Counted from the stretch's first letter, positions 9,001 to 61,434 are shown. The stretch: DNA of 64,000 nt from Minisyncoccota bacterium (GCA_017881075.1 JADGRH010000001.1:59639-123638); one strand, 5' to 3'. Numbers and translations: made by a program. Notes: a model not told the origin generated them from the sequence alone.

Positions 9001-9606
9001 GATCTTAGAGTAAGTACCTTAGAGAACCTGGGACCCCAAAGAGGGGGTGGAGGAGTCAGCACTGGAATCTTTGAAGATCTCCTTTCAACACTACAATCCT
9101 TTGGCACCGAAATCGTTGACGGAGTTTCTTATATGAAGAACTTCCTTGCTGAACATCTCACTACCCAGAACTTGACTATAAAAGGCAAAGATATTACGAA
9201 GACAGGATTCACTATTTATGATCGGGCTACCGGCGATCCTATCTGCGTCTATTTTGAGAACGGGATCCAAAAGACTTCCCCAGGCGAGTGTCCCGACAGC
9301 ACAGCTACTTCAACTCCTCCAACAGACACTACCTCCATTGTCTCAGACAACAACCCCCCAATAGATCCCCTCACCGGATCCAGCACTCCTCCGATCTCCG
9401 ATATCGGATCAAATCCTCCTCCAGACCAACCCCCTCCAACACCACCACCCGCCGACCCCACTCCGCCCTCCGATCCCACCTCCTTGATAGCGCCGAGCGC
9501 CCCAACATCACCACCAGCCCCTGATACGTCAGGATCGAATCCTTCTGATTCGACGTCCGCTCCCGCTGATCCGGGCTCGGCTCCTTCCAATGGGGGAGGC
9601 AATTAG
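1..9606 (+). CDS. Giant repetitive surface/fibre-like protein (5'-truncated at window edge; >3194 aa) with C-terminal phage tail-spike-type intramolecular chaperone (peptidase S74-like) domain and Pro/Thr-rich tail
   Basis: Frame 1 is open from nt 1 with no upstream stop, and the ORF-track start at 22 is GTG. The motif GNVGIGTT(T/A)PGxKL recurs about 18 times. Near the C-terminus, 'SDISLKENIQNI...LQGVTYFWKD...IGFIAQQVEPIVPQVV...YGNLTAVLASAIQEQQ' fits the chaperone-of-endosialidase / S74 consensus. The last ~100 aa are P/T/S-rich low complexity. Stop is TAG at 9604-9606. Confidence 0.8.
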   Translation, partial: ATSSIFRVNANGNVGIGTTTPGYKLHVKSASDIQFALDVDSGGRYTSQYFLNNGSTRAVNFWDETSNNLTIGTSHSGADLIFNRGLNAAAMTISGTTGNVGIGTTTPSTKLSVAGQGFFETSTETPVGSGTPGPGIRIGYLTSGDYGYITSSNSGVAAKNLVLQPGGTGNVGINQTVPLDLLHIAGDNIATIRLQNTISGGKTYQIGSAISGVSNAGFQIYNVTNSRSEMVIDTNGNVGIGTTAPGGKLSVSGGAAIGSSYATTAVSDGNLIVSGSLGIGTTTPGSKLDIWGNLNVATGTTPALFVNTATGNVGIGVINPGKPLDVTGDIRASGNLLAGGGNAYLFNGGVRLGNSSGEIDLSANDMIYGPNAGTTNHIFKIGGNEIARINSTGIGIGTTTPGAKLHALSTTEQLRLGYDASNYNSFTVGSTGSLTVAAVGTNPNITLTPGGTGYTILNGNVGIGTTAPGQKLDVAGNINVSTNSAYMYNGLNVITASTTLSNYFFGGSGNLTMTGNANTASGYQALYSNTTGTTNTASGFRALYSNTTGTYNTASGINALYSNTTGTRNTANGLGALYSNTTGGNNAGYGINSGYGLTTGNNNTLIGPSDSVVASYNQVTTGSNNISIGNNVAVASPTASNQLNIGNLIYGTGLNGTGATISGGNVGIGTIAPDKKLEVNLGTSDALRLTYNDSDGSAANYTDFNVSSVGSLTIAPTGTNPNITLTPGGTGYTILNGNVGIGTSTPTLPLVVNGKIMSYGNSTNQITMSPAGNGVDSYAHLQIFNTAGYGQGYLDFYTYPGQGLGTPTVRWRGVDLGSYTGGHVFSASAASQNGASTDVLFVGNTGATGVLTNHFGVGVLTNAPVSALDVNGGVSIGSYAAVNAAPSNGLIVSGNVGIGTTTPGFNLQVAGTGVSAAFGAAANNNGAGVAFLGSSTGKNFFIGNQYNIGGALEITPSTANGGSTFTTPVVTILSTGNVGIGTTAPGTKLEVVGTASSTGLQVNGNGAITGTISAPTFVATTNNIAFLSLKSLSSTIGVGVTNGDVLSFDWGGIYPKGYQFRTSATQGINIDSSGNVGIGTTAPGASLQVAGTGIWSSVYGFSAGGNAPLAVGTAVLRTGNDFRIQDDGSFKINQSGAAAFLTILNTGNVGIGTTAPREKLDVAGNITTDWADRFIGTEYQDGSTYRMGMKVVTSDRDLQIINKSAGENFSGISFHTGTGPTERMRIDKGGNVGIGTTNPGNKLVVSGAGYTYAEVDASSSSGTYSGGYRAYNDVGAQVLLDIYASSSVGTYLGQPLSNLVRLTDYSGSSGIAIGTYTNTPLTLGTNNSARLVINGAGNVGIGTTAPSAKLQVNVASGYANTWWSNDSVTTPFSAIYGAHVVGSFGQNYSTGGGADFAGFSHANNEVGVEFDGYVGGTSPTAPALLLAGWKSNGTTGASAMSGTDIIAQIAAGASPVVTVQANGNVGIGTTSPVSKLDVSVTSPGSTNFGLSVRDSTVTPTYASNADNLLTVRGAGSSVTTWKGRITAGGDNVEFLMGEYNSLAWLGAHNAALNAWTNIYINPDGGSNAYIGDSGGGVNNIPVPILAVINSTGNVGIGTTAPDVNLAIGSQLLGAQGLSGAVLNLGGSSSQMPGINIGQDATHAIEFYWIGNATPGSATAALETSGYLNPFAINGSKTTIQSAAGNVILATGGGNVGIGTTAPGGKLSVSGGAAIGSSYATTAVSDGNLIVSGSLGIGTTAPGSKIQAVGGYISTFDNTGYGPAFMQGASGVSYFGNTGTSRIAFGNNTNYERMTILDNGNVGIGTTTPGFLLTVAGTSNITGAAIFGSTLGVTGATTLSSTLGVTGQTTLANASSTNLTVSTNSYLGTVQSGTWNGTTIAVANGGTGQTTYTNGQLLIGNTTGNTLTKAALTGTTNQVVVTNSTGSITLSTPQDIATASTPTFASTTLSNFTLGSIPFFGSSGKLGQNNANFFWDGTNNRLGIGTSTPDTLLTVAGNGRFTGTLSASNLSGTNTGDVTLGAIAATPNANGASLSGQVLTLQPASTSFGGVVTTGTQSFTGDKTFTSNSLAALQVTGSNTGRTSITVQNTNASGNASFYFQNDRGSFNSYGGLLTGGSSDVGGTLFGLARADRTFLINDGTNALGLALGTLTAQPLTLGTNNLARVTILSGGNVGIGTTAPTSTLELYRGDNNIGPTLTLNNPTGNAGTAGSAIDFLGYSGASQPVTNRIKTIDDGAYGYHLAFLTKADSSGGALFEAMRIQGGTGNVGIATTTPGFPLTVTGASNFTGALNFNGAAGSSGNILQSNGSGSAPSWVSTTTLGTIAVNQGGTGQTTYTNGQLLIGNTTGNTLTKATLTGTANQVNVTNGAGSITLSTPQNIGTTSSPTFNSLNIANGSTYSGWIGNFGLGSDWVGFTADGAQSASKYAFEATASYGETVFNANGGGTLPFIDFRFSNGGVEPITRIYGSGGLYFGSVAGAADPGLQNLSIFSGKLGVGVLTASAKIHALSTTEQLRLGYDASNYNSFTVGSTGSLTVAAVGTNPNITLTPGGTGYTILNGNVGIGTTTPGAKLSVKGGGTTTGLNFQTTNSNNLPLVTILDSGNVGIGTTTPGNKLQINAALATASESLLRLSGGSTGFAGTNDAGTAYSLVFDGTAYSVGTGVVQRDGAKIEMAKEASWNEAGGGGGPLGALLFYTSAGSIASPKLTEKMRITSLGNVGIGTTAPDSKLTISSNTATLPSGAATLRIAEADTVQTSAVIDAFATNGLFNFRRADTTAASPSAVQSGENLGVFGAAGYGTSAYSGTRARVGFFADETWTNTANGTSIRFSTTLNGAATAGGTERMRIDNAGNVGIGTSTPDQALVVSGTARATNLLGGATTLSTDASGNIIRTPSDISLKENIQNIDSADALSQVLALQGVTYFWKDKARFGTAQEIGFIAQQVEPIVPQVVKSGGAYKSLNYGNLTAVLASAIQEQQKQITANASTTRANASSTASALSSLDLRVSTLENLGPQRGGGGVSTGIFEDLLSTLQSFGTEIVDGVSYMKNFLAEHLTTQNLTIKGKDITKTGFTIYDRATGDPICVYFENGIQKTSPGECPDSTATSTPPTDTTSIVSDNNPPIDPLTGSSTPPISDIGSNPPPDQPPPTPPPADPTPPSDPTSLIAPSAPTSPPAPDTSGSNPSDSTSAPADPGSAPSNGGGN
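1561..1800 (+). repeat. In-frame tandem repeat of a ~60-nt unit (about 4 copies), encoding NTASG(Y/F/I)xALYSNTTGTxNTASG, inside the giant gene
   Basis: 'caccgccagtggt...gcgctctatagcaacaccactggaacc' is visibly repeated at 1553-1612, 1613-1672, 1673-1732 and 1733-1790. Confidence 0.8.
9391..9412. repeat. REP-type palindrome TCCGATATCGGA (family 1), embedded in the 3' coding region of the giant gene (encodes PISDIGS)
   Basis: Perfect 12-nt palindrome tccgatatcgga preceded by the partial duplicate tccgatc. The same core recurs at 10438-10449 and 10520-10531. Confidence 0.7.
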
Positions 9607-47113: not shown

Positions 47114-48280
47114 ATGCTAAATTTTTTTCACAGCTTTCATGGTAATGATCTATTAGATGTTATTCTGGTAGCCCTTTTTATCTATGTTGTTTTTATTTTT
47201 ATCAAACAGACTCGCTCTTACTTCATTTTCAATACCTTTCTGCTTCTTTTTGTCATTACCTATTTGTCGCGAACACTGGACCTTGCCCTAAGTCGTAAAC
47301 TATTTGAACCGTTAGTGGCTTTTTTCGCCATCATTTTTGTAGTGGTCTTTCAGCGTGAGATCCGTCGTTTTTTTAAATGGTTTGTTATCTCCCGTAATCG
47401 ACTGGGACGAAAAACCGAAACCATGATTACAACTCGCATTACCGACGCCATTGTGGAAGCGGTGGCTATAATGGCCAAGAAGAGAACAGGGGCTCTGATT
47501 ATTCTCTCCGGCGAATATCCTTTAGATGGCGTGGTAGAAGGAGGATTTTCTCTTGGTGGAGAAGTTTCCACCCCGCTTCTTTTAAGTATCTTTGACAGTC
47601 ATACTCCGGGTCACGACGGAGCGGTGTTGATTGATAATAAACGGGTCAAGAGTTTTGGTTTACATTTGCCTCTCACTGAAGAGTTCCGCGGCTCGCCAAC
47701 CCTAATGGGAACACGTCATCGGGCAGCTCTCGGGCTTTCAGAAAGAACGGACGCCATGATTATTGTGGTCTCGGAAGAGAGGGGAGCTATCTCTATCGCT
47801 CAAAATGGGGCACTACGAACAGTCCCCGATAGTGATAGTTTGGCGACCATCATCCGTGATTTCATTAAGGAAAATCCGCAAGAGACGCATGATTTCTGGT
47901 ATTACATTGTGGTTAAAAATTTTTTTATCAAGATTCTTTCTATTGTTATTGCTCTGGCTCTTTGGATTCTTCTTGTATTTCAGGGCAATATTTCTAATCG
48001 CGAGATCACGGTGCCGATTGAATTCAGTCATATTCCGGCGAGCGTCATTGTAGAGAAAGTGATTCCACCTGAAGTGAAGATTAATGTTTCAGGCAACAGC
48101 CGTGACGTTGCCGCTCTAAAAGAACAAGATGTAAGGGTTATTATTGATCTCTCTAAAGCGGTGGAGGGTAGCGAGCAATTTGATGTCACCAAAAAGGAAG
48201 TCGTTCTGCCGTCCTATCTTAATCTAGTCAGCATCAGCCCAACCAGAACCTTGGTCGGGCTACATAAAGTCGGACCGTGA
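47114..48280 (+). CDS. cdaA: Diadenylate cyclase CdaA fused to a YbbR-like (CdaR) domain
   Basis: 3 N-terminal TM helices. DAC domain with 'TPGHDGAVLI' and 'GTRHRAALGLSERTDAMIIVVSEERG'. Then an additional TM and ~130 aa 'REITVPIEFSHIPASVIVEKVIPPEVKINVSGNSRDVAAL...' resembling YbbR repeats. Confidence 0.75.
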   Translation: MLNFFHSFHGNDLLDVILVALFIYVVFIFIKQTRSYFIFNTFLLLFVITYLSRTLDLALSRKLFEPLVAFFAIIFVVVFQREIRRFFKWFVISRNRLGRKTETMITTRITDAIVEAVAIMAKKRTGALIILSGEYPLDGVVEGGFSLGGEVSTPLLLSIFDSHTPGHDGAVLIDNKRVKSFGLHLPLTEEFRGSPTLMGTRHRAALGLSERTDAMIIVVSEERGAISIAQNGALRTVPDSDSLATIIRDFIKENPQETHDFWYYIVVKNFFIKILSIVIALALWILLVFQGNISNREITVPIEFSHIPASVIVEKVIPPEVKINVSGNSRDVAALKEQDVRVIIDLSKAVEGSEQFDVTKKEVVLPSYLNLVSISPTRTLVGLHKVGP

Positions 48281-48411
48281 GCCTGGTGGTTTTGAGTTCG
48301 AGTCCTTAACCCCCAACAAATAAATAAAAGATAATTTTAAGATAATGTTATTGACAAAATGGCTAAATAGGCGTAGTTATATATTATTATTTGCTTAATA
48401 ATTATATTGCC

Positions 48412-49557
48412 ATGAAAAAACTTCAATTTTCAGCCATATTTTTCAGCCTAATTTTGACAGTGATGTTCTTTCCACATTTCGGATTGGCTGACACCGTTGG
48501 TCTCTCTGTGAGTAGTATGAGCAATAACAGGGTTCAGATTAACGTAAATGGCGACAGTAATTATTCTGTAGATCTTTTTTACCAAGTATCTCCGTCATCG
48601 CCCACCATCCCTGTTGGTTCTATTGGCACCACCGACTCAAGTGGTTACTTTTCTGCCATTCTAAATAGTGGCAGCTACAATCTCTCATCGGGTTATAGAG
48701 TATATGTGGAAGTGAATGGCCAGCAATCAAACACCGTGATCTGGCCGTCTTCTGACAATAACAATAACGACCAAATCACTTTCAGTCAGAACAATATAGA
48801 ATTGGATTATAACCAAAGCATCACCGTAAATATTTATGGTGGCTCCGGCTCGTATTATATTTCTTCCAATTCAAATTCTGATTTTGTCAACGCCTCAATC
48901 AGCGGTAATCAAATTTATCTCTCAACTGACAATAATAATCAGTATAACGGTGACTCGGCTACCATCCGTGTCTGTTCTCGTAATGGTAATTCAAGTTGTG
49001 GTTATCTGTATGTAACCCAGAGTGGCAATAATAATAATGAACAGGTTAGTTTCAGCCAAAATAATATTAATCTCAATATCGGCCAACAAGTTCAAACCAC
49101 TATCTACGGTTCCGGCAGTTACTACATTTCTAACAATTCTAATTCAAATGTGGTCAACGCTTATCTAAACGGCAATACTCTGAATATTACAGGAAGTCAA
49201 AGTGGTTCAGCCACTATCAGAGTTTGTTCCAATAATAGTAATTCAAGTTGTGGCAATCTTCATGTCAGTGTCAGTGGCAACTATTATAATAATAACAATG
49301 GCTACTACAATAATCCTCCCATCGTCTACGTTCAGAATCCAACCACTCCTATGTATACTCAGTCTATTTATGGCGGATTAGGCACGCCGTCCGCCGGAGT
49401 ATTCTTAAGCCATGTGCCTTCAACCGGCATCAGTTTCAATCTGAAAATGGCTCTCTTTTTCATCGGCCTCTTTATGTGGAGTGCTTTCGGTGCTTTTATG
49501 ATTCTTTCCTACCAAGAAAGCAAGAAATTACTGGCTGACCTAGAAAAGAGAAATTAA
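48412..49557 (+). CDS. Secreted surface protein with repeated Ig-like modules and a C-terminal VPSTG + TM + charged-tail sorting-signal-like module
   Basis: Signal peptide from the ATG at 48412. Repeated '...ATIRVCS.N.NSSCG.L.V..SG' modules. C-terminus 'HVPSTGISFNLKMALFFIGLFMWSAFGAFMILSYQESKK...'. Confidence 0.6.
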   Translation: MKKLQFSAIFFSLILTVMFFPHFGLADTVGLSVSSMSNNRVQINVNGDSNYSVDLFYQVSPSSPTIPVGSIGTTDSSGYFSAILNSGSYNLSSGYRVYVEVNGQQSNTVIWPSSDNNNNDQITFSQNNIELDYNQSITVNIYGGSGSYYISSNSNSDFVNASISGNQIYLSTDNNNQYNGDSATIRVCSRNGNSSCGYLYVTQSGNNNNEQVSFSQNNINLNIGQQVQTTIYGSGSYYISNNSNSNVVNAYLNGNTLNITGSQSGSATIRVCSNNSNSSCGNLHVSVSGNYYNNNNGYYNNPPIVYVQNPTTPMYTQSIYGGLGTPSAGVFLSHVPSTGISFNLKMALFFIGLFMWSAFGAFMILSYQESKKLLADLEKRN

Positions 49558-51065: not shown

Positions 51066-51719
51066 ATGAAACAGTCAGTAAAGTGGTATAAACACAAAGA
51101 GACCCTTTTCATTCTGCTCTTCGTTGGTATATTTTTCGTCTCCTTTGTCATTTTGTATTTTCTGGGACTAATTCCTAATGAGTTGATTGTTGATACCAGT
51201 AAGCCGAGCGCTCTGGACCAATTGAATGAACACTCCATTGAAAGTGTTGTTGGGGGCAATAACTCGAATAATTATTCAGTCACCATTCTCCAAGAAGAGC
51301 CCATCAAGATTGAGGCGGCCACAATCGGTTTAAGTTTCAGTATTGAAAACCCGACCACTGATAATTATCAGGCTCTGGATTCGGCACTGGTGAGGGGGGC
51401 GGTCCATTATCCCGGCTCCGGTTTTCCCGGTGCAGGCAACATGTTTATTTTTGGTCACAGCACCGGCTTCAAAGTAGTGAACAACAAGGCTTATCAAGTT
51501 TTCAATAATATTCACAATCTTCAGCAAGGTGATGAAATAAAAATTTATTCCAAGGACAAAGTTTATTCATATCGTGTCAGTTCGGTGAAGTTGGAAAAAG
51601 ACAGTAATGCTTATGTCAACTTCTCCACCAATATCAACAAATTAACTCTCTCTACCTGCAACAGTTTCGGCGCGAAAGAAGATAGGTATGTTGTGGAGGC
51701 AGACTACGTTAGCAGCTAA
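51066..51719 (+). CDS. Sortase-family transpeptidase
   Basis: N-terminal TM anchor. Catalytic His in 'IFGHSTG', Cys in 'LTLSTC' (TLXTC) and Arg in 'EDRYVVEADY'. Followed by a GC-rich hairpin ggggccggcgc-gga-gcgccggcccc. Confidence 0.75.
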   Translation: MKQSVKWYKHKETLFILLFVGIFFVSFVILYFLGLIPNELIVDTSKPSALDQLNEHSIESVVGGNNSNNYSVTILQEEPIKIEAATIGLSFSIENPTTDNYQALDSALVRGAVHYPGSGFPGAGNMFIFGHSTGFKVVNNKAYQVFNNIHNLQQGDEIKIYSKDKVYSYRVSSVKLEKDSNAYVNFSTNINKLTLSTCNSFGAKEDRYVVEADYVSS

Positions 51720-51853
51720 GGGGCCGGCGCGGAGCGCCGGCCCCGTTGACTATTTCTTCATATAGTGGTAGCAATTAGAGTGGGTAAAACCAACTATTTT
51801 CAATAGAAATTTGACAAATCAATAAAACAAAAAACAAGAAAGGGCAGTTACAG

Positions 51854-53821
51854 ATGCAACAGAACGAACCAACGCAACAGATTTCACATGCTCGCCTTCA
51901 AAAACGCTACCCCACTATGAGGATCGGTGAAGATGAGGATGAGTTCGCAGTAGATCTTGACACCACGAACACTGAGAAAAAAGGGAGACCAGTTAAGGAC
52001 CTGGATCGGGGTGAAAAACAACTTCATTTCGATCATCGGCTTCTCCGATATAATAAACCTGAATTGGCTGCAATGGCCGAACCGCTTTTGCCGGGAGATG
52101 TGAGAGAGACAAGCAATCTCTCCCTTATTTCGGGAAAGACTGGCCATGAAAGCGACGCCAGTCTTCACCGGGTTGTAAAACCCGAAATGGTCGGAGACGG
52201 AGAGAGAGGACGTGCTCTGGCTGAGAGACGACAAAAGAGACGGTTTCCCCGTGAAAATTTCGGCTTAGGAAAGCTCCAAGACGATCACATCAGAATCTAC
52301 GGCAATGCCATTGACGCCTTCGGCTCTCTAGGTCTGGTTAAAGGAAAATTCGAGGAAGGTTTCATTATCGACCTCGACCAGGGTGAAATCGAAGGAAACG
52401 TCGGCGGAAAGAGTGGCTTTAATCACAACACTCACAATATCAGTAATGTCGAGGGCGATGTCACCGGAACAACAGGAAATCCCAGCGGTTTCATAACAAA
52501 GGTAAATGTCACGGATTGGGGTAACTGGGAACAGATACTTCTTCTCTTTTTCGGGTACGATCCGCTTTTGTGGGATGGAACACCTCTTCCCTCTGATCTG
52601 GCTCCTAAGCCAGGAAGCGCCGTTGATCTTTATCGAATCGCCCGAAAAGCATACGAGACTGGCGGTGGAGGTTACACCCCTGAAATCAAGGCACTCTACG
52701 ATCTCTATCGGGTTGAGCTCGCAAGGGTTTGGAAAATCGCCGAAGAGATGCAACTGCCGTGTTATCTCGATCTGGTAACGACCGCCGACTGGAATGCCGG
52801 CGACTGGGTCTATCGAGATTTTTTCGAAAAGTGCCAAGCCAGGTACGAACAAGCGAAAAAAGACGGGGTAGAAAATCCCGTGGAAACACCATTCGTCCTT
52901 GTAAGACACGAAAGTGGCAATCTTCGCACCACGATCGCCTTGTTCTCGGAACTCGACGGTCGTTCTGATGCGGAAAAACAGTGGGAACTGCCGGATGAAC
53001 CAGTCATTCGGAACATCAGCGCGACAGTGCATTGGAGATCAGAGTGGATGCCTCAAGAAGAGATCGAGTGGCGAACGCGAGCTAATGAAAAAATCTCGCG
53101 TAAGAATATTCGTCGTCAGTTGCGTGGCAAAGAACCTTTGCCTCTGTGGCCTGTTGGATCTCTGATTCCAGAATGCGTGCGGCATGGATGGGACGGGGAG
53201 AGGAAGCTCACCCTAAGGCCCATCATAGAGTTTCCTAAACAGCCCGACAGGGAGGTCTGGAACTTTAAGCCGAGATCGGAAAGTGACGAACATTTCCACG
53301 CTCGAATGTTTCGGAAATATAGGATCTGTCCGCGACACCCACCCTTCTGGATTGAGGATTTCTATGTCTCGGTACCAGTCTATGCAGGTACAGGGAAAGT
53401 GAAATACCTCATTTGTCCGAAGATGTTGAAGATGCCGCCCGGTCCGATGCTACACGTTTCTCATGTGCGTGAATTGCTTCATAGGCCAAGAGCTGAAGCT
53501 CTGGCTTATGTGGATCGTCTTCAACCCAAAAAGCCGCAACTCAGCGCTAAAGCGCTTCAGTACATTAAAGGAAAGATGAAACCTTTGCCAAAGGAAGAGC
53601 GAAGAAGTAAAGCCAAACAGAAAACCAAGACTATCCCTCGGATTTCGGAACAACCTCCGAATTTGCCGAAGGAAGTTAATCTTCCTGCTTCAGCTACAAC
53701 TTCAACTTTAGTAGCACCGGCGCCGAATTCTTCCAAAACTCCGCCGGAACCCGAGACCCCAAAGACGGGGGTAATACGACGGCTTGCGGGTGCCGCCGCC
53801 TCCTTCTACATTAGGCAATAG
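51854..53821 (+). CDS. Large (655 aa) orphan protein, first gene of a compositionally distinct island
   Basis: Long ORF with coding-like periodicity and codon usage distinct from its neighbours (more GCC/CGC/GAG/AAG). No recognisable motif. Basic, Lys-rich C-terminal region. Confidence 0.5.
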   Translation: MQQNEPTQQISHARLQKRYPTMRIGEDEDEFAVDLDTTNTEKKGRPVKDLDRGEKQLHFDHRLLRYNKPELAAMAEPLLPGDVRETSNLSLISGKTGHESDASLHRVVKPEMVGDGERGRALAERRQKRRFPRENFGLGKLQDDHIRIYGNAIDAFGSLGLVKGKFEEGFIIDLDQGEIEGNVGGKSGFNHNTHNISNVEGDVTGTTGNPSGFITKVNVTDWGNWEQILLLFFGYDPLLWDGTPLPSDLAPKPGSAVDLYRIARKAYETGGGGYTPEIKALYDLYRVELARVWKIAEEMQLPCYLDLVTTADWNAGDWVYRDFFEKCQARYEQAKKDGVENPVETPFVLVRHESGNLRTTIALFSELDGRSDAEKQWELPDEPVIRNISATVHWRSEWMPQEEIEWRTRANEKISRKNIRRQLRGKEPLPLWPVGSLIPECVRHGWDGERKLTLRPIIEFPKQPDREVWNFKPRSESDEHFHARMFRKYRICPRHPPFWIEDFYVSVPVYAGTGKVKYLICPKMLKMPPGPMLHVSHVRELLHRPRAEALAYVDRLQPKKPQLSAKALQYIKGKMKPLPKEERRSKAKQKTKTIPRISEQPPNLPKEVNLPASATTSTLVAPAPNSSKTPPEPETPKTGVIRRLAGAAASFYIRQ

Positions 53822-53840
53822 TAGGGAAATAACGATAGTC

Positions 53841-53870
53841 GGCGTCGCGTCTTGCGCGACGCCTTTTTAA
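53841..53870 (+). terminator. Rho-independent terminator
   Basis: ggcgtcgcg-tctt-gcgcgacgcc + ttttt. Confidence 0.75.
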
Positions 53871-53960
53871 TTTTCCATTGACACCAGCTACTTATCATGA
53901 TAGATATCTGACTAGATATTGTAGGAAAAAACAACGAACAAAAACAAAAAGAAAGGTATT

Positions 53961-55424
53961 ATGATTAGTTTTTTGATAACACCGTGCAGGAAAATTTGGC
54001 CGAAAAAGCTGAAACCATGGCTTACGGCCACCATAGCCGTCGATATCGGCACCGACAATCTCGACATTTGTCTATGTGATTCAGACGGAAAGCCCGATGT
54101 CGACAAGATTCTTCAGCTGCCCACCGTTGCGCTCAAAATGGCTGATGGAGAAACTCTTCTCGCCATTGGGGATGAAGCTCGAGCGGTGATAGATCGTGTC
54201 TCTAATGATGCGGAAGAAAAAAGGCGTGTGGAGGTGATCCAGCCGGTCAGAAACGGCAAGATCGTCAATCGTCCAGTGGCGACAGCTCTTCTTAAGATGG
54301 GCCTCCGAGAGTTTTGGAAGCAGTATCCTCAAATCACGGATCAAACGCAAATCCGCCTGATTGTCACAGTGCCAATCAAGTTATCTCATGTCCAGGAACG
54401 AGAGGTAGTCAATGTGGCGCAAAACGCGACCACGAGGAATGACGATAGCAGCACCACTTCCGTCTCGGTTATCGATCAGCCGATGGCAGCAGCCATTGGT
54501 TCGGGAGTTTATAACCCGAAGAAAGTTATTGGGTCACTGATTTGTGACATCGGAGGGGGTACTCACCAGGTGATGGCCGTTTCCGGAGTAGCAGGTAACA
54601 TGGCCTCCAGGCTTTTGGAAGAAGGAGGCAACGCTTATACGGAGGTCATACAGGAGTATTGCCGCACCAAGCACAAGATCGATCCTGACTTCAACGAAGC
54701 CGAAAGGGTAAAGTGCGAGATCGGAGCAGCCGAGGTGGTTCCTGAAAAAGACGAGAACAACAAGATGACAGATGGTAATCGAACTACCAGAATCTATGGC
54801 AAACATCTCGAGACGCACTTGGGTGATTCGGTTGAATTGACCAGCGAGGAGTTGGTACCGGTCTTTGCTTCAATCCTTGGTCGTTTCGTGAGACTGATCA
54901 AGGAAGTGGGAGATGTCGCGCCCAAAGGAGTGGTTGCTGACATGGCAAAGCCAAACTCGGGTCTTTATCTTGCAGGCGGAGGCTCTCTGCTTCGCGGTCT
55001 GCCAGAATACCTGAAGAAAGAAACTGGTTACAATGTCTATGACATCCCGAATCCTCAAAGAGTTGTTGTGATTGGGGCGGCCATGGCACTGGGGAGTCCC
55101 ATCCTCTCCTTCAACTTTGTCCGGGAGCCTATCATTGAAGATCCAAAACGAAAGGGTTTGCCGAAAGCTGTCAAACGACCGTCGTTCAGCAACTTGAGCG
55201 GTCAAAGTCCGACCTTCAGATGCTCAACTCTTCCATCGGAGGATGGAGAATCGGATCCGGTCACCCAATACTCGAAGGGCACAACTTCTGATGGTAAGAC
55301 CTTCGAGGAGAAGGCCTTGCTCCTGGGTGTAGGCGTGAAGTATCTCGACGATCTCACACCCGCTGAGAAGAGACGACTCGCGGCGCAGAAGAAAATGCCG
55401 GTAATGGAGACGCAGACAGCCTAA
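53961..55424 (+). CDS. Divergent MreB-like actin-family ATPase with ~90-aa C-terminal extension
   Basis: 'IAVDIGTDNL' (phosphate 1), 'IDQPMAAAIGSG', 'GSLICDIGGGTHQVMAVS' (phosphate 2), 'GGNAYTEVIQEY...ERVKCEIGAA', 'GLYLAGGGSLLRGLPEYLKKETG' (adenosine motif). These align in the MreB order. Confidence 0.7.
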   Translation: MISFLITPCRKIWPKKLKPWLTATIAVDIGTDNLDICLCDSDGKPDVDKILQLPTVALKMADGETLLAIGDEARAVIDRVSNDAEEKRRVEVIQPVRNGKIVNRPVATALLKMGLREFWKQYPQITDQTQIRLIVTVPIKLSHVQEREVVNVAQNATTRNDDSSTTSVSVIDQPMAAAIGSGVYNPKKVIGSLICDIGGGTHQVMAVSGVAGNMASRLLEEGGNAYTEVIQEYCRTKHKIDPDFNEAERVKCEIGAAEVVPEKDENNKMTDGNRTTRIYGKHLETHLGDSVELTSEELVPVFASILGRFVRLIKEVGDVAPKGVVADMAKPNSGLYLAGGGSLLRGLPEYLKKETGYNVYDIPNPQRVVVIGAAMALGSPILSFNFVREPIIEDPKRKGLPKAVKRPSFSNLSGQSPTFRCSTLPSEDGESDPVTQYSKGTTSDGKTFEEKALLLGVGVKYLDDLTPAEKRRLAAQKKMPVMETQTA

Positions 55425-55442
55425 GGGTAGTAATTAGTCAGC

Positions 55443-55472
55443 GCCGCGGAAACCTAGTTTCCGCGGCTTTTT
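55443..55472 (+). terminator. Rho-independent terminator
   Basis: gccgcggaaacc-tag-tttccgcggc + ttttt. Confidence 0.8.
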
Positions 55473-55596
55473 ATATAAAGTAGCTTCTACGGTAAAATTT
55501 AATTGACGTATAAGATTTAGTGTGATAAGGTCAAAAAGAATTTTCATTTCGTCGAATTCTCGACGAAACAGCTCTTAAACAAAGAAAGGAACATAA

Positions 55597-56319
55597 ATGG
55601 CTAAACCAGCCGTAAAGAAAGTCTCAGTGCAGAGGCGCGCGGTTCAATTGGTCAGTCAATTCATTTGCGCTGGCCGCAAGTTTCATTGGCGCAGGGTCGG
55701 AATTACTCTTCTCATGCTTGTAGTTTTTCCAATCTTGATGTGCACTCTTTGGCATCACGGAGGAAAAATCGCTTCTCTCGGGTGGCGTACAACCACTCAA
55801 GGATTGCAATATTTTGGTAGTCACATGCAGATGGCAACGAAGTTGGCAAAAGTGCAGACAGCGCTCAACCTTACCGACTACGATCTTCGAGTGACACAGC
55901 AAAAGTTTGCCAACAAAACCGAAGAAGCGGCGGAAAATGCAGACGAGGCAAAGGCCGCGCACAAATCGGAAGCGGAGTTGCGTGAGTCCCTAGCTGCGAA
56001 GAAGGAATCTTTGGACGCCGAGAAAAAAGCCACCACTAGACTTGAGGGAGAGGTCACACAGGCAAACCTTAATGGCCAGAAGCGGGTGGAGAAAGCTCAA
56101 GCGGAAGCAGCTTCAAAGATCGCTGATGCCAATGGTGTAGCAGCGGCTGCCGTTAATCGCGCCAAAGTAGCCGAAGCTGCGGTAAACAAACTTCCAGACG
56201 AAAGTTTGAGCAAAGCCAAAGCCGAAGCGGAGCAAAAAAACGCCAGATTGGAAGCGGAGCTTAGACAATCGAGAGCGCGACACCTCGCAGACGTCAAAGA
56301 ATTACTGAAGGGCTATTAG
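55597..56319 (+). CDS. Membrane-anchored coiled-coil protein (island gene)
   Basis: One TM helix ('ITLLMLVVFPILMCTLW'), then a ~170-aa Ala/Glu/Lys-rich coiled coil. Followed by the terminator at 56334-56360. Confidence 0.45.
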   Translation: MAKPAVKKVSVQRRAVQLVSQFICAGRKFHWRRVGITLLMLVVFPILMCTLWHHGGKIASLGWRTTTQGLQYFGSHMQMATKLAKVQTALNLTDYDLRVTQQKFANKTEEAAENADEAKAAHKSEAELRESLAAKKESLDAEKKATTRLEGEVTQANLNGQKRVEKAQAEAASKIADANGVAAAAVNRAKVAEAAVNKLPDESLSKAKAEAEQKNARLEAELRQSRARHLADVKELLKGY

Positions 56320-56382
56320 TGCTCAATCAGGACGCAGTGCGGAACACCGATTCCCGCACTGCTTTTTATTTTAGGGCTGTTT

Positions 56383-56411
56383 CAAATTGCCCTTGACTTT
56401 ATTTCAGGGAT
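56383..56411 (+). promoter_or_regulatory. Candidate sigma70 promoter GCCC-TTGACT-N17-TAATAA (extended -10 TGa)
   Basis: ttgact at 56383-56388. tgataataa at 56403-56411. Confidence 0.5.
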
Positions 56412-56512
56412 GTGATAATAAGAGAAATGAATCGTCAATAGTTAATAAATCTTGAACAAGTATTCAGGGTTTATGTTGACAAACAAACAACGCAGACAAC
56501 CCGGGAGGGTTT

Positions 56513-57097
56513 ATGAATATATCGAAAACAAACAAGCCATTCGCTCTCATTCTCGCGCTCATCGCGGCCGTTTCCTTCGTCGCCACCCCCGTGGCGTTCG
56601 CTGGCGACAGGAACGAAGCGAAGCCGAAGCAATCGGCGATACCTACTAAAGCAGCCGCCAAGAAACTACCAAACGAATTCACTGGCATTCCTGAAGCCAC
56701 GCCAGTGGATCAAATGATCGCAATTGATACGACACCGACCGGAAACGATCCGAACAAAAAGAAACTCCAACAGCTAGCTACAGCTGCCGACCCCACGGCG
56801 TCAGCAACTCCGGACCCTACGGTGGAAGCCAAAGCTGGGATCGTCGCCGAGATTCGCAGGATGGCGAAAGCCAAGATTGACGAGATCACAGCCGAAAAAG
56901 ATGATGTTTCGAGCAAGTACAACGAACTGGTCAAAGGCTACAACAATCTGCTCACGCAACTAAACACTGCGAATGGCGATAAGGCTAAGTTGCAAGCCAA
57001 TTACAACGTCTTGGCGGCAGCGTTGGATGGAGCCGACGACATCAAAACGACGCTCAAGCCGAAAGAAAACCCGGCACCGACGGTCGTTAAGAAATAA
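56513..57097 (+). CDS. Secreted coiled-coil protein (island gene)
   Basis: Signal peptide 'ALILALIAAVSFVATPVAFA', then a predicted helical/coiled-coil C-terminal half. Terminator at 57116-57152. Confidence 0.45.
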   Translation: MNISKTNKPFALILALIAAVSFVATPVAFAGDRNEAKPKQSAIPTKAAAKKLPNEFTGIPEATPVDQMIAIDTTPTGNDPNKKKLQQLATAADPTASATPDPTVEAKAGIVAEIRRMAKAKIDEITAEKDDVSSKYNELVKGYNNLLTQLNTANGDKAKLQANYNVLAAALDGADDIKTTLKPKENPAPTVVKK

Positions 57098-57169
57098 GAC
57101 ACGATCAATTTCGATCAGCGAGCGCAGGGAAGTCCTTTGCGCTCGCTATTTTATTTAGAGACGAAGCCC

Positions 57170-57198
57170 TTGACTTTCTACTACTAGTATGATAATAT
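57170..57198 (+). promoter_or_regulatory. Candidate sigma70 promoter GCCC-TTGACT-N17-TAATAT (same architecture as 56383)
   Basis: ttgact at 57170-57175. tgataatat at 57190-57198. Confidence 0.5.
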
Positions 57199-57256
57199 AC
57201 AGGTAAATCAGGTTCTAGACACTATGTTTAGGGCCGCAACACGGAGAAGTATACAG

Positions 57257-58057
57257 ATGAAAAAACAGATCTTTGCAACACTGATCATGGCCCTAGTGGC
57301 TGGATCGATGATCAATAACGTCTCAGCCCAGACTTCAGCATCAGTGGCCGCTGACGCTGACGTTGTGGCACGCGCGGAAAAATTCAAGGCAAACAGGGTG
57401 CATATCGCAACTCTGGAGCAGGAAAATGCTCGGCTCACAGCAAACGCCGAAGTCTACAAAGAAGCTTTGGGAACAGAGCCCGTTGTGACTTCCTCGCCTG
57501 CGGCAAGCACAACCGCTTCACCAAGCGCGACGACAGACACCAAAGCGGAGAGCGCGACGAAGGACGCCACCGAAGCCGAGATCAAGAGATTGGTCGAGGA
57601 CAAACGGCGCGAAATCGCGGCAAGGAAAAATCTTCCTGGCCCGACAGCGAACAACACCTCTGCGGCACCGGCGAGCACGCCCGCAGACCCAATGGATCGT
57701 GAAGGCTACACCAAGACCTTGGTGGGTAGCTACATCCAGAAGGTGGAAGACCCGCGTTCTAAGCCCGTCGAAATCTTGGCCCGCAAGATTACCCTGGTTG
57801 GAGAAACCGAGGGAAAGATGCGCGAGCTTTGTTTCTGGACTGATGGGCACCACAACATTACCACGGGGTATGTGAGTGGTGGGGTGAAGGCGCATTTGAA
57901 TCGTCCGGATCATCAAACCTGGAAAAGGGGAGAGATCCGCGACGGACAGACAGGCAACATTCTTGTCGTCTATTACGTCGATTCGCCGGAAGGGAAGGTG
58001 GTCACAGCCTCCCGCCGGGAGTACCATCAAAAGCCGTCAAAGAATCAGCGTCGATAG
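57257..58057 (+). CDS. Secreted protein with coiled-coil N-terminal part, Ala/Thr/Ser-rich linker and a C-terminal globular domain (island gene)
   Basis: Signal peptide from the internal Met (MKKQIFATLIMALVAGS). C-terminal region 'CFWTDGHHNITTGYVSGGVKAHLNRPDHQTWKRGEI' has no match I recognise. Terminator at 58080-58107. Confidence 0.45.
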   Translation: MKKQIFATLIMALVAGSMINNVSAQTSASVAADADVVARAEKFKANRVHIATLEQENARLTANAEVYKEALGTEPVVTSSPAASTTASPSATTDTKAESATKDATEAEIKRLVEDKRREIAARKNLPGPTANNTSAAPASTPADPMDREGYTKTLVGSYIQKVEDPRSKPVEILARKITLVGETEGKMRELCFWTDGHHNITTGYVSGGVKAHLNRPDHQTWKRGEIRDGQTGNILVVYYVDSPEGKVVTASRREYHQKPSKNQRR

Positions 58058-58116
58058 GACGCAAAACGACTATAAGCGACAAGTGCAGGGAAAAAGTCCC
58101 ACACTTGCCGCCGTTT

Positions 58117-58144
58117 ATTTAAAAACTTGACAAATTAATGATAT
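58117..58144 (+). promoter_or_regulatory. Near-consensus sigma70 promoter TTGACA-N16-TATAAT
   Basis: ttgaca at 58117-58122 and tataat at 58139-58144, about 65 nt upstream of the 58212 gene. Confidence 0.55.
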
Positions 58145-58211
58145 AGTGTATAATACTTAAATCATTGATTTTTAGCCAAAAAAGCATAATTTAAAAATAA
58201 TCAACAAAAAC

Positions 58212-59663
58212 ATGAACAAAATTTTAAAAACAATTAAATACAGCTTAGGAATTATGGTAATCCTTGCCTTTGCTTCTATTTCTATGGGGCAAGTTGTTTA
58301 TGCGGATACCCCATCTGATTATGGATCAGGAAGCTACTACGACTACACTCCTGATTATGGATCTGGAAGTTATTACAACTATACCCCTGATTATGGATCC
58401 GGCAGTTACTATAATTATACTCCTGACTATGGCTCAGGCAGTTACTACGATTCTTCTCCGACCTACACTGATAATACTTCCGGCAATGGTTACGGCACCG
58501 ACTATGGTTATTACTACGGAGACAACTGTGGCTCTAGTTGCGACACTACTAATTATGGCACTGACCAGGGTTATTACTATGGTAATAACTGTGATACTAG
58601 TTGCGACACCGCTAGCAATGATTATGGTTACGGTGGCTCTGGTGGTGGCTACGGAGGCTGTTCTTACGGTTGTGGTAGTAGTAACTCCGGAAGTTATGGC
58701 ATGCCATCCTACAATTCCTACGGCACTCCCTCTTACAATCCACCATCTTACAATTACAACCCCACCCCTACCTATTACAATCCTCCATCTTCTAACGGCT
58801 CCGGCGCTATCGTAGTGAATAACAACAATAACAATACAAATAACAACACCAACAACAATAATGTGGTAGTGAATATTCCTCCGGTCAATACTGTCACTCC
58901 TCCGCCACCCCCACCTCCTCCTGTCTACAACAACCTTACTGCTTACTGTGTTGGCACCCCTTCTAATCCTCAAATTGGAGATAATGTTACATGGAGAGTC
59001 TATGCCTCGGGGGGTAATGGTAACTACAATTATTCTTGGAGAGGAGATGTCTCTGGTAATAACACAACTGAAAACGCCAACTATTATAATAGTGGTACAG
59101 AGAGTGCTTCAGTCAGGGTAACAACCTCAAATGGCGATAGCTTTACTACCGACCAATGTGAAGTAAACGTGCAACCACGAGGATCAACCATTTCTAATGT
59201 TACGGTCTATACTCCACCAACAGGCACTCCTAGCGCAGGTGTATTCCTTAGCCAAATTCCTGCTACTGGCATCAGCCCTACGATGAAATTGGCTCTCTTC
59301 ATTCTCGGACTCTTTCTCTGGAGCGCCTTCGGAGCCTACATGATTCTGGAACGACGCAAGATGGGTACATTGGCTACTGCTGGTATCAATGCTTCCGACA
59401 TGGAAGATGAGGCCGACGAAGTGGTCACTGAACCGACGGAATCAATTCCAGCTGACGATCTTGAAAGTAATCTTTCTTTCCGAGCGCGCGAGAACAATGT
59501 TCTCATCTCTCGAGATGGTCTTGCCGTCATAATGAATCGAGCCAATGGCAATCAGGGCGAGGCTGAAAACATCCTTTCACAACTCGTGAGCAAGGTTTCC
59601 AGAAATGACGGAGATTACGCTACACTGAACGGAGAAAAAATTAATAAATTACTTAATAGTTAA
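58212..59663 (+). CDS. Secreted Tyr/Gly/Ser-rich repeat protein with a C-terminal IPATG + conserved TM module followed by a ~105-aa cytoplasmic tail
   Basis: Signal peptide. 4 tandem 36-nt repeats encoding YGSGSYY(D/N)YTPD. Cys-rich and Asn-rich stretches and a Pro8 run. 'TPSAGVFLSQIPATGISPTMKLALFILGLFLWSAFGAYMILERRK' is shared with the 48412 gene. Confidence 0.6.
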   Translation: MNKILKTIKYSLGIMVILAFASISMGQVVYADTPSDYGSGSYYDYTPDYGSGSYYNYTPDYGSGSYYNYTPDYGSGSYYDSSPTYTDNTSGNGYGTDYGYYYGDNCGSSCDTTNYGTDQGYYYGNNCDTSCDTASNDYGYGGSGGGYGGCSYGCGSSNSGSYGMPSYNSYGTPSYNPPSYNYNPTPTYYNPPSSNGSGAIVVNNNNNNTNNNTNNNNVVVNIPPVNTVTPPPPPPPPVYNNLTAYCVGTPSNPQIGDNVTWRVYASGGNGNYNYSWRGDVSGNNTTENANYYNSGTESASVRVTTSNGDSFTTDQCEVNVQPRGSTISNVTVYTPPTGTPSAGVFLSQIPATGISPTMKLALFILGLFLWSAFGAYMILERRKMGTLATAGINASDMEDEADEVVTEPTESIPADDLESNLSFRARENNVLISRDGLAVIMNRANGNQGEAENILSQLVSKVSRNDGDYATLNGEKINKLLNS

Positions 59664-59666
59664 CAA

Positions 59667-59713
59667 AAAAGAAAACAGCGGCCGCCTAAAGGCGGCCGCT
59701 GTTTTCTTTTTGG
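59667..59713. terminator. Bidirectional Rho-independent terminator overlapping the thrS stop
   Basis: aaaagaaaacagcggccgcc-taaa-ggcggccgctgttttcttttt. Confidence 0.8.
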
Positions 59714-61434
59714 AATTTTTCGATCAATTTTGCTATTTTAATTGTCTCCGCATTTCCTTTGTCACGGCTCTCTAGTGTTACGGTCTGCGACCCAACCTCT
59801 TTGTCACCAATGACGGCCATGTAGGGGACTTTCTCTACCTTTCCTTCTCGTATCTTCTTGCCGAGACTTTCATTAGAATCATCCAACTCCGCTCTGATGC
59901 CGGCGCTTTTCAATTGCTGAAATACTTCGCCGGCATACTCTTGATGTGTCTCACCAATAGAGAGGATCTTTATCTGAACAGGGGAGAGCCAGAAGGGGAA
60001 TGCACCGGCGTAATGTTCGATCAAAAAACCGATGAATCTCTCATGAGTACCAAGAGGGGCGCGGTGAATGCAAAGAGGAGTTTCCTTTTCTCCTTTAGCA
60101 TTAACATAATTTAAATCGAATCGTTTTGGTACCGAAAAATCTACTTGATTAGTAGCCAGAGTAAACTCCCGGCCAATAGCACTCCAAACTTCCACGTCAA
60201 TCTTAGGGCCATAGAAAGCCGCTTCGTTGGCTATTTCTACATAAGGAATTTTTGATTCCACCAAAACATCTCGAACCATTTTTTCCGTTTCAATCCAGAG
60301 CAGAGGCTCATCAACATATTTCTCGCCCAGTCTGGCCGGATCATGAGTGGAAAAACGCATCTGATATTTTTCTATACCAAAAATCTTAAAATATTTAAGA
60401 TACATTTCATTTACTTGTCGAAACTCTTCCGCAAATTGATCCTTACTGCAATAAATATGGGCATCATTCATTTGCATAGAACGCGTCCTCATGATGCCGA
60501 AAAGTTCTCCCGATTTTTCCTGCCTGTAAACAGTGCCATATTCAGCCAGGCGCAGAGGTAGGTCTTTATAACTCGGATGCATCGCCGCAAATATTTTATG
60601 ATGATGCGGACAATTCATGGCCTTTAGATAATACTTTCCGCCCTCATATTCCATTGGTGGAAACATGCTCTCCTGGTAATAGGGAAGATGGCCGCTTTTT
60701 ATATACATTGATTCCTTGGCGATGTGAGGTGTGCGAACTCTTTGGTATCCTGCTTCAAACTCTGTTTCTTTGGCAAGCTTTTCCAGCTCCTCAATAATAA
60801 TGGCTCCGTTCGGAAGCCAGAGCGGCAGCCCTGGCCCGGTATCTTCATCAAAAACAAAAATTTTTAATTCACGGCCGAGTTTTCGATGATCTCGTTTTTC
60901 GGCCTCAATCTGTTGTTTCTCATAATTTTCCAATTCTTCTCTTGTTTCAAACGCTAACCCATAAATACGAGTGAGCATTTTGTTTTTCTCGTCTCCGCGC
61001 CAATAGGCACCGGCGATGTGGGAGAGCTTAAATGCATCAATATTGACATCCTGCATGTTGTCAACGTGTCCGCCGCGACAGAGGTCGGTGAATTTTCCAG
61101 CAGTGTAAAGAGTGATCGGCTCCTTTTTGGCGACAATCTCATCAATCAATTCCAGTTTGTAGGGATTGTCGGTGAATAGGGCCCTCGACTCGCTCGGGCT
61201 CACTTCTTTATGCTCAAACCCTTTCCACCCATTATAAATTTTCTTCATCTTCTTCTCGATCTCCTTCAGGTCTTTATCCGAAATAGGGGACACGAAATCA
61301 AAGTCGTAATAGAACCCATTCTCAATAGCTGGCCCGATAGTATTTAAAGCATCAGGATGCAATTCCAAAACTGCCGCCGCAAGCAAATGTGCCAGCGAAT
61401 GTCGCATTTTAGCCAGTTTGTCGTTTGAATCCAT
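59686..61434 (-). CDS. thrS: Threonine--tRNA ligase (short form lacking the N-terminal TGS domain)
   Basis: Editing-domain 'HSLAHLLAAAV', class II motifs ('FRQVNEMY...', 'HRAPLGTHERFIGFLIEHYAGAFPFWLSP') and a C-terminal anticodon-binding domain. 582 aa. Confidence 0.85.
   Translation of the reverse strand: MDSNDKLAKMRHSLAHLLAAAVLELHPDALNTIGPAIENGFYYDFDFVSPISDKDLKEIEKKMKKIYNGWKGFEHKEVSPSESRALFTDNPYKLELIDEIVAKKEPITLYTAGKFTDLCRGGHVDNMQDVNIDAFKLSHIAGAYWRGDEKNKMLTRIYGLAFETREELENYEKQQIEAEKRDHRKLGRELKIFVFDEDTGPGLPLWLPNGAIIIEELEKLAKETEFEAGYQRVRTPHIAKESMYIKSGHLPYYQESMFPPMEYEGGKYYLKAMNCPHHHKIFAAMHPSYKDLPLRLAEYGTVYRQEKSGELFGIMRTRSMQMNDAHIYCSKDQFAEEFRQVNEMYLKYFKIFGIEKYQMRFSTHDPARLGEKYVDEPLLWIETEKMVRDVLVESKIPYVEIANEAAFYGPKIDVEVWSAIGREFTLATNQVDFSVPKRFDLNYVNAKGEKETPLCIHRAPLGTHERFIGFLIEHYAGAFPFWLSPVQIKILSIGETHQEYAGEVFQQLKSAGIRAELDDSNESLGKKIREGKVEKVPYMAVIGDKEVGSQTVTLESRDKGNAETIKIAKLIEKFQKENSGRL

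Follow-up and report, generated by a model that had tools for sequence, protein, structure and literature searches.

In the ultra-small Patescibacteria, envelope organisation and attachment to host cells are largely unknown. We consider here a stretch of 64,000 nucleotides (nt) from a Minisyncoccota bacterium (GCA_017881075.1, JADGRH010000001.1:59639-123638), called the window in what follows, and within it a block of five genes (51745-58211) placed between a sortase gene and the gene of one of its putative substrates. Taking the ThrRS of the window (59686-61434, minus strand) as a guide, with a best identity of 72% to proteins from Nomurabacteria, Paceibacteria and similar metagenome-assembled genomes, the host belongs to the Patescibacteria (candidate phyla radiation, CPR), of the Paceibacteria or Nomurabacteria type. 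A preliminary description had seen in the block an island of foreign composition, possibly an integrated plasmid, a phage-like element or another horizontally acquired module. The novelty lies in the partners that accompany an accessory, actin-like component within a surface locus of variable content.

Five genes and their signals

All five genes are open reading frames (ORFs) of the plus strand, named I1 to I5. With their two neighbours they are as follows, lengths being in amino acids (aa):

51066..51719, plus strand: left flank, sortase gene, 217 aa (Pfam Sortase, 6e-20), with the surface gene directly 3' of it in relatives
51854..53821, plus strand: I1, a 655-aa orphan, cytoplasmic and basic, with a short helix predicted at the very end of its K/P-rich tail
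53961..55424, plus strand: I2, a divergent MreB-family actin-like ATPase, 487 aa, extended by about 23 aa at the N-terminus and about 100 aa at the C-terminus
55597..56319, plus strand: I3, a bitopic membrane protein of 240 aa: basic tail at the N-terminus, one transmembrane (TM) segment and a long A/E/K-rich coiled-coil-like region
56513..57097, plus strand: I4, secreted, 194 aa: signal peptide and P/T/A linker, with a C-terminal half that resembles a coiled coil
57224..58057, plus strand: I5, a 277-aa secreted singleton: signal peptide, coiled coil, S/T/A/P linker and, at the C-terminus, a domain of about 120 aa
58212..59663, plus strand: right flank, surface protein of 483 aa, a putative sortase substrate; sorting-like motif IPATG, TM segment and a cytoplasmic tail that is conserved

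That the block is compositionally distinct is borne out. Its guanine-plus-cytosine (GC) content is 49.2%, against 43.9% elsewhere, which places it first among the 6.4-kb segments of the window. Gene by gene, the values (0.498-0.550) exceed those of all 48 other genes (maximum 0.485; Mann-Whitney p = 3.5e-7), and the mean GC at third codon positions (GC3) is 0.552, compared with 0.423 for the others (p = 1e-5), first and second positions (GC1 and GC2) being likewise richer. The change is abrupt at both borders, neighbouring genes standing at 38.9% (48391-49557) and 44.2% (58212-59663). Codon usage shifts modestly, with a rise of AAG, GCG, TCG, ACG, GTC and CTC and a fall of TTA. The move towards GCC, CGC, GAG and AAG announced earlier is real for AAG, but GCC (0.35 to 0.31) and CGC (0.17 to 0.14) show no enrichment. 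Translational selection is an unlikely cause of the high GC3, because the genes of the window that code for ribosomal protein L25, GAPDH and aldolase have an ordinary GC3.

The first gene product, I1, has neither TM segment nor signal peptide, and it has no match in Pfam, PHROG, NCBIfam, PADLOC or the Protein Data Bank (PDB), a PDB profile search with the I1 alignment being empty as well. For I1 as for I5, word-indexed homologue searches returned the query itself and nothing else. A full HMMER search of 1.84 billion representative proteins recovered just two relatives of I1, P0127 (38% identity, 1e-66) and P0128 (29%, 8e-14), and pattern scans of the JGI metagenomes and IMG/VR for the family were empty. 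By these similarities I1 is the founder of a protein family of three known members. The third, of 537 aa, is encoded on L084 (87-2806, Logan ERR11523670), where the gene 3' of the I1 homologue codes for a multi-TM, low-complexity protein that is not MreB-like; therefore I1 is not strictly coupled to an actin homologue. AlphaFold2 models of I1 were unusable, with predicted confidence (pLDDT) of 34 for the protein alone and 39 with a three-sequence alignment.

The second protein had been described as an MreB-like actin with a C-terminal extension, next to a 655-aa orphan, and both descriptions hold. To be sure, I2 is a remote cousin. It passes the Pfam model MreB_Mbl (PF06723) easily (4e-45, 154 bits for a cut-off of 27), yet it falls short of the NCBIfam cut-offs for MreB (NF010539, 159 vs 293 bits; TIGR00904, 130 vs 366 bits). 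Its best PDB match is Caulobacter MreB (4cze, 1e-27), and the nucleotide-binding motifs of the ASKHA fold (phosphate-1, phosphate-2 and adenosine) are retained, DIGTDN, DIGGGTHQV and LAGGGSLLRGL aligning with 4cze. Identity to any canonical MreB is about 30%, and the branch leading to I2 is about three times as long as the spread among canonical MreBs. The catalytic-site E of the MreB motif (I/L)EEPMAAAIG is replaced by Q, in IDQP of I2 as in VSQV of the orthologue from a related genome, L082 (GCA_038215155.1).

The three remaining proteins match families weakly: coiled-coil ones for I3, DUF3450 and coiled-coil families for I4, and again weak coiled-coil families for I5, which has no homologues and for which a PDB sequence search was empty. 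Among the PADLOC defence models, no block protein gave a real match, coiled-coil noise apart (JetC, E = 0.01-0.08).

Each gene had also been credited with its own strong terminator and its own sigma70-like promoter. A hairpin followed by a T-run is indeed present 3' of all five, with fold energies of -18 to -27 kcal/mol, the fifth being the weakest and its stem starting at about 58076, not 58080. Matters are less simple for promoters. A TTGAC(A/T/G) -35 box stands 5' of every block gene (51746, 53878, 55504, 56393 and 57170), followed in most cases by a TGn extended -10-like element, but a consensus promoter scan is passed, among block genes, by 57170 alone, the other site that passes being the surface-gene promoter at 58127. 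Positions 53878 and 57170 were placed correctly, whereas those given as 56383 and 58117 are about 10 nt off (56393 and 58127). Gaps between block genes range from 126 to 193 bp, compared with a host same-strand median of 20 bp. The signals, from left to right, are:

51720..51745, plus strand: GC-clamp hairpin 3' of the sortase gene, left boundary of the insert; fold energy -27.9 kcal/mol, no clear T-run
51746..51774, plus strand: I1 promoter-like site, read from the sequence as TTGACT, 17-nt spacer, TAGCAA, with a weak -10
51804..51823, plus strand: left copy of the border repeat, TAGAAATTTGACAAATCAAT, from a repeat search; -35-like box with no -10 downstream
53841..53863, plus strand: I1 intrinsic terminator, hairpin and T-run
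53878..53912, plus strand: I2 promoter-like site, read from the sequence as TTGACA and then TGATAGATA
55443..55467, plus strand: I2 intrinsic terminator, hairpin and T-run
56334..56362, plus strand: I3 intrinsic terminator, then TTTTTATTTT; fold energy -21 kcal/mol
56393..56420, plus strand: I4 promoter-like site, sharing 72% identity with the I5 promoter over 32 nt (repeat family D4)
57117..57147, plus strand: I4 intrinsic terminator, hairpin and T-run
57170..57198, plus strand: I5 promoter-like site, TTGACT, 17-nt spacer, TG-TAATAT
58076..58111, plus strand: terminator-like hairpin 3' of I5, imperfect, weakest of the five at -18.3 kcal/mol, then GTTTATTT
58120..58154, plus strand: right copy of the border repeat, within the consensus promoter of the surface gene (TTGACA, 16-nt spacer, TATAAT)

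The promoter-like site of I1 aligns with TTGACT-N17-TAATAC 5' of its L082 orthologue. As for the near-repeat reported at both borders, it is present: its copies (51804-51823 and 58120-58139) agree at 17 of 20 positions, with p ~0.004 against mononucleotide shuffles. The core of the repeat, TTGACAAAW, has five occurrences in the window, and four of these are upstream of genes of the surface locus (48351, 51038 on the minus strand, 51811 and 58127). This recurrence suggests a promoter type common to the surface locus. Because the core recurs in this way, as the -35 motif of neighbouring surface-protein gene promoters, the border repeat is best read as promoter similarity, and the idea that it is a duplicated target site is not supported; the borders of the L082 block carry no significant repeat. 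The motif is found 5' of surface-protein, CARDB and island genes.

The site in related genomes

The block interrupts a pair of genes that many relatives keep together. About 100 bp separate the sortase gene from the surface gene in L017 and L008, with ThrRS and DnaE next to them. A metagenome scan seeded with the sortase alignment gave about 26 loci where ThrRS is at most 3.5 kb from the sortase gene, the distance being 8.0 kb in the window. These gene orders show sortase, surface gene, ThrRS to be the ancestral arrangement and, because some 26 relatives have the empty site, the block is an insertion into an ancestral sortase-substrate pair, in keeping with what had been proposed. Homologues of the 483-aa surface protein come after the sortase gene in L017, L008, L082 and L085.

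One genome, L082, has the same kind of block. It encodes P0127, at the same site and in the same gene order as in the window: sortase, a 570-aa I1 homologue, a 509-aa MreB-like protein, a TM coiled-coil protein, two secreted coiled-coil proteins, the surface gene, ThrRS and DnaE. A homologous arrangement is found in L083, and both L082 and L083 come from other samples. In neighbour-joining trees with 40 canonical MreBs, 100 of 100 bootstraps unite I2 with its L082 counterpart as sisters, and the two have several indels in common. Set against its positional counterpart in L082, I3 is significantly similar (z = 4.2), I4 marginally so (z = 2.0) and I5 not significantly, the architecture alone being alike. 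All block ORFs of L082 are intact, and its block too is GC-rich (46.2 vs 40.2%; GC3 0.43-0.54 vs 0.33-0.40). Divergence is considerable: the block proteins of the two genomes are 29-38% identical or not recognisable, whereas the flanks retain 60% (sortase), 58% (CARDB), 53% (surface protein), 54% (ThrRS) and 80% (DnaE). Synteny and conservation of the five genes, as expected of an ordinary inherited cluster, hold within a very small clade and not beyond it.

Other genomes hold other genes at this place. The flank genes make L082 and L085 sisters (sortase 76%, CARDB 68%, surface protein 70%, GyrB 87%), with the window as outgroup, and L085 has at the same site a different block of four genes (GC 47.5 vs 42.7%). 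They code for a bactofilin (Pfam, 6.7e-16), an orphan of 553 aa and two coiled-coil proteins, one secreted and one with a TM segment, the latter resembling the TM coiled-coil protein of L082 (z = 3.8). The 553-aa protein had been a candidate homologue of I1 after one pairwise E = 0.001, and was rejected: the hhalign probability is 0.2, and the score of a profile hidden Markov model stays within that of shuffled controls. The ThrRS gene of L082 (17593-19353, minus strand) is 54% identical to that of the window and 59% to that of L085, the window-L085 pair being at 77%; it has probably been replaced, as all other flank genes place L082 beside L085.

In a neighbouring clade (L112, L093, L087 and L148), secreted proteins with a YkuD L,D-transpeptidase domain, together with small lipoproteins, separate the sortase and surface genes, and L028 carries a coiled-coil lipoprotein there. 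The L,D-transpeptidase cargo lies as follows:

L112, 9912-11883
L093, 10889-12838
L087, 3044-4198
L148, 10856-13005

Its GC content is 0.54-0.66, compared with 0.40-0.53 for the flanks, an excess of about 4 to 20 GC points that is largest in the AT-rich L112. The cargo proteins are 31-51% identical where the sortases are 75-78% identical.

Origin and possible role of the cassette

All cassettes found at the site exceed their hosts in GC content and have diverged much faster than the flanking genes, in the manner of capsule or O-antigen loci and not of an integrative element; their content, as far as predicted domains can tell, is always envelope-related or cytoskeletal. On balance, and with a confidence that goes only somewhat beyond even, we consider the block to be one allele of a hypervariable accessory cassette, occupying a fixed site between sortase and substrate genes in a small, Paceibacteria-like clade of Patescibacteria. 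The best reading of these comparisons is that the set of cassettes is old and fast-evolving, and not the outcome of a recent integration. The cassettes of the window and L082 may have descended vertically with very fast evolution, or they may have been exchanged out of a diverged allele pool.

The latter possibility deserves attention in its own right. The cassettes of the window and of L082 might have been gained or replaced independently from a shared, GC-richer and deeply diverged pool, by homologous recombination in the conserved sortase and surface-gene flanks, the alleles predating the split of the hosts. Though we think this rather doubtful, much would be accounted for: block proteins diverged far beyond their flanks, as is the L,D-transpeptidase cargo relative to its sortases; a GC3 excess that persists in every genome, though synonymous sites should be saturated; a different cassette in L085, the sister of L082; and, beside the locus, a ThrRS gene of L082 that looks replaced (54%, vs 77% for L085). 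Against it, no donor pool is visible, the I1 family having three members among the 1.84 billion representative proteins, and the third of these is itself not rich in GC (L084, GC3 0.39). The divergence would be explained equally well if diversifying selection had driven fast evolution. 

A conservative view would make the block an ordinary mreBCD-like cell-shape operon with a composition that is atypical by chance. The match of I2 to MreB_Mbl and the bitopic coiled-coil membrane protein that comes next, loosely reminiscent of MreC, agree with it. Five composition outliers out of five genes do not, nor do the distance of I2 from all canonical MreBs, on its long branch and below the NCBIfam cut-offs, the lack of MreC, MreD, RodA or PBP2 domains in the block and the absence of the genes from the site in about 26 relatives; such an operon is improbable.

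The integration first envisaged fares slightly worse still, and we hold it to be very improbable. Under that scenario, a recently integrated plasmid or phage left behind I1 as a replication or recombination protein and I2 as a ParM-like partition ATPase, the border repeat being an attachment or target-site duplication. The block shares with mobile elements its atypical composition and its presence or absence among relatives; an actin-like ATPase beside a large basic orphan, the direct repeat at the borders (improbable enough in shuffled sequence), a weak match of I2 to a PHROG partition protein (9e-6) and the fact that genomic islands are common in Patescibacteria (PMC12455944) all fit. By contrast, Pfam, PHROGs, NCBIfam and PADLOC gave no integrase, transposase, replication or phage structural match in the block, and the site has no tRNA and no match to a non-coding RNA in Rfam. 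Phage and plasmid records searched by tblastn with I2 returned only ordinary MreB genes (~22-30% identity), and a scan of IMG/VR for I2 was empty. I2 itself fits MreB (1e-46) far better than partition proteins, and the block holds neither iterated centromere-like repeats nor a ParR-like gene. The repeat has as its core the -35 box of nearby surface-gene promoters and has no significant counterpart in L082, where the homologous five genes, intact and at 29-38% identity, also speak against a recent acquisition. From the sequences compared, the block is not a recent mobile element. Finally, a chimeric assembly, in which a piece of a GC-richer organism was joined into the contig, would yield the abrupt GC step at both borders but is hardly credible, the same junctions being present in Logan contig L001 (run SRR10489828) and in the NCBI 169-kb contig, and the arrangement recurring in L082 and L083.

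What might such a cassette do? MreB and bactofilins are both membrane-bound polymers or scaffolds that position cell-wall enzymes. The allele of the window probably builds a membrane-bound actin-like filament tied, via coiled-coil proteins, to the cell surface. I2 would polymerise as a nucleotide-binding, membrane-associated filament, with I1 as a cytoplasmic partner or adaptor that may act via its tethered C-terminal helix. I3 would cross the membrane, and its coiled coil on the outside would pair with those of I4 and I5, both secreted. The five proteins would form a trans-envelope scaffold that places wall or surface structures, the sortase-anchored proteins encoded to the left and right of the block possibly among them, and that might serve as an attachment site in an episymbiotic lifestyle; diversifying selection on surface interactions would in that case lie behind the rapid divergence. 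Such a scaffold is favoured because an MreB-like protein or a bactofilin sits with exported coiled-coil proteins inside a sortase-substrate locus, where L,D-transpeptidases are found elsewhere. The earlier proposal of a cytoskeletal and surface module, self-contained and composed of proteins not described before, is supported. A bolder proposition, which we regard as speculative and fairly unlikely, is that of a swappable locus of Paceibacteria-like bacteria in which non-homologous filament formers (MreB-like in two genomes, a bactofilin in one), each with a large orphan and exported coiled-coil proteins, build an undescribed trans-envelope scaffold, for example an attachment or feeding structure of an episymbiont, I1 representing a new class of filament adaptors.

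Several points weigh against the reading of the block as an envelope cassette with a cytoskeletal role. Function is deduced from domain types and predicted topology alone, the tie of the block to the flanking sortase and substrate is positional only, and the structure models of I1 are of no help. With Q at the position of the catalytic E, the ATPase activity of I2 may be altered. The orthology of I4 and I5 with the L082 genes is marginal or undetectable. As the 553-aa protein of L085 is not detectably related to I1, the functional equivalence of the cassettes is a matter of gene types, not of homology, and the cytoskeletal cassettes are defined by three genomes only. Lastly, the reading does not account for a GC3 excess that persists although divergence must have saturated the synonymous sites, repeated import and recombination-associated GC bias being possible causes.

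Even so, the locus is a compact and testable candidate, combining an accessory actin-like filament, a new family, with three members among about 15 billion predicted proteins, and three membrane or exported coiled-coil proteins. The sister of L082, L085, has a bactofilin there instead, a natural experiment which hints that a polymer-forming scaffold is the required ingredient. More generally, an island that stands out by its GC content but lacks mobility genes can be an old, fast-evolving variable cassette and no recent transfer, and this bears on the calling of islands from composition in CPR genomes.

Some neighbouring genes may be mentioned. The genes at 58212-59663 and 48391-49557 code for paralogous surface proteins, each with [IV]P[AS]TG followed by a TM segment, their C-terminal parts being 66% identical over 50 aa. 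In the 483-aa protein the TM segment is followed by a cytoplasmic domain of about 95 aa that is conserved, which is not usual in sortase substrates, and its gene contains at 58315-58458 tandem repeats of 36 nt encoding PDYGSGSYY(D/N)YT units. Further away, a plus-strand gene at 47114-48280 codes for a diadenylate cyclase (CdaA N-terminal and DAC domains) fused to a YbbR-like domain in one polypeptide. At the left end of the window (22-9606, plus strand) a giant ORF of 3194 aa, which may start before the window, has a Peptidase_S74 intramolecular chaperone domain near residues 2886-2944, of the kind present in phage tail-fibre or endosialidase-like proteins. By tetranucleotide usage this ORF is the most deviant part of the window, with a GC content of 48.5% but an ordinary GC3 of 0.42.

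Comparison with known systems

Literature searches returned no description of this cassette, and its kinship must be sought piecewise. The obvious reference is MreB with RodZ, MreC and MreD. There as here, an actin-fold ATPase with MreB-type motifs goes with a bitopic membrane protein, and both sets presumably connect the envelope with the cytoplasmic side of the membrane. I2 differs by its low identity (~30%), its scores below the NCBIfam cut-offs, its Q for the catalytic E and its N- and C-terminal extensions; the partners are not homologous to MreC, MreD, RodZ, RodA or PBP2, and the I2 type is an accessory gene, known at this site from two genomes and absent from it in some 26 relatives. 

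The PilM-PilN-PilO-PilP series is alike by architecture only, with an actin-like cytoplasmic protein, a bitopic coiled-coil protein and exported partners in a row. The block gave no match to PilM (PF11104), PilN, PilO or PilP (E <= 0.1), I2 is MreB-like, and no pilus genes are adjacent. ParMRC type II partition systems differ as well: I2 fits MreB, ParR-like genes and iterons are missing, and the context is chromosomal and conserved in L082.

Genomic islands have been documented in Patescibacteria, and MreB is listed among the genes exchanged between these organisms (PMC12455944). The block resembles such islands as a compositionally atypical accessory segment in a streamlined CPR genome; unlike them, it is old, has no mobility genes and is common to a relative with flanks that are 54-80% identical. 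O-antigen and capsule loci differ in their cargo, which consists of sugar-pathway genes where ours is cytoskeletal, coiled-coil or L,D-transpeptidase. Yet they have in common with this site a fixed position, conserved flanks, a persistently atypical GC content, diverged or non-homologous alleles and an envelope-related content.

There remain the lineage-specific actins, MamK with MamJ, crenactin with the arcadins, and CorMR. MamK has no sequence relation to I2 (41 bits with the MamK model, for a cut-off of 400), and the partners encoded in the block are mostly exported. The likeness lies in the association of a lineage-specific actin with lineage-specific partners, often coiled-coil or disordered, in a role that is probably one of organisation and not of core growth. 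CorMR, a chromosomal ParMR repurposed for cell shape, provides a precedent for accessory actin cytoskeletons (bioRxiv 10.1101/2025.06.27.661541).

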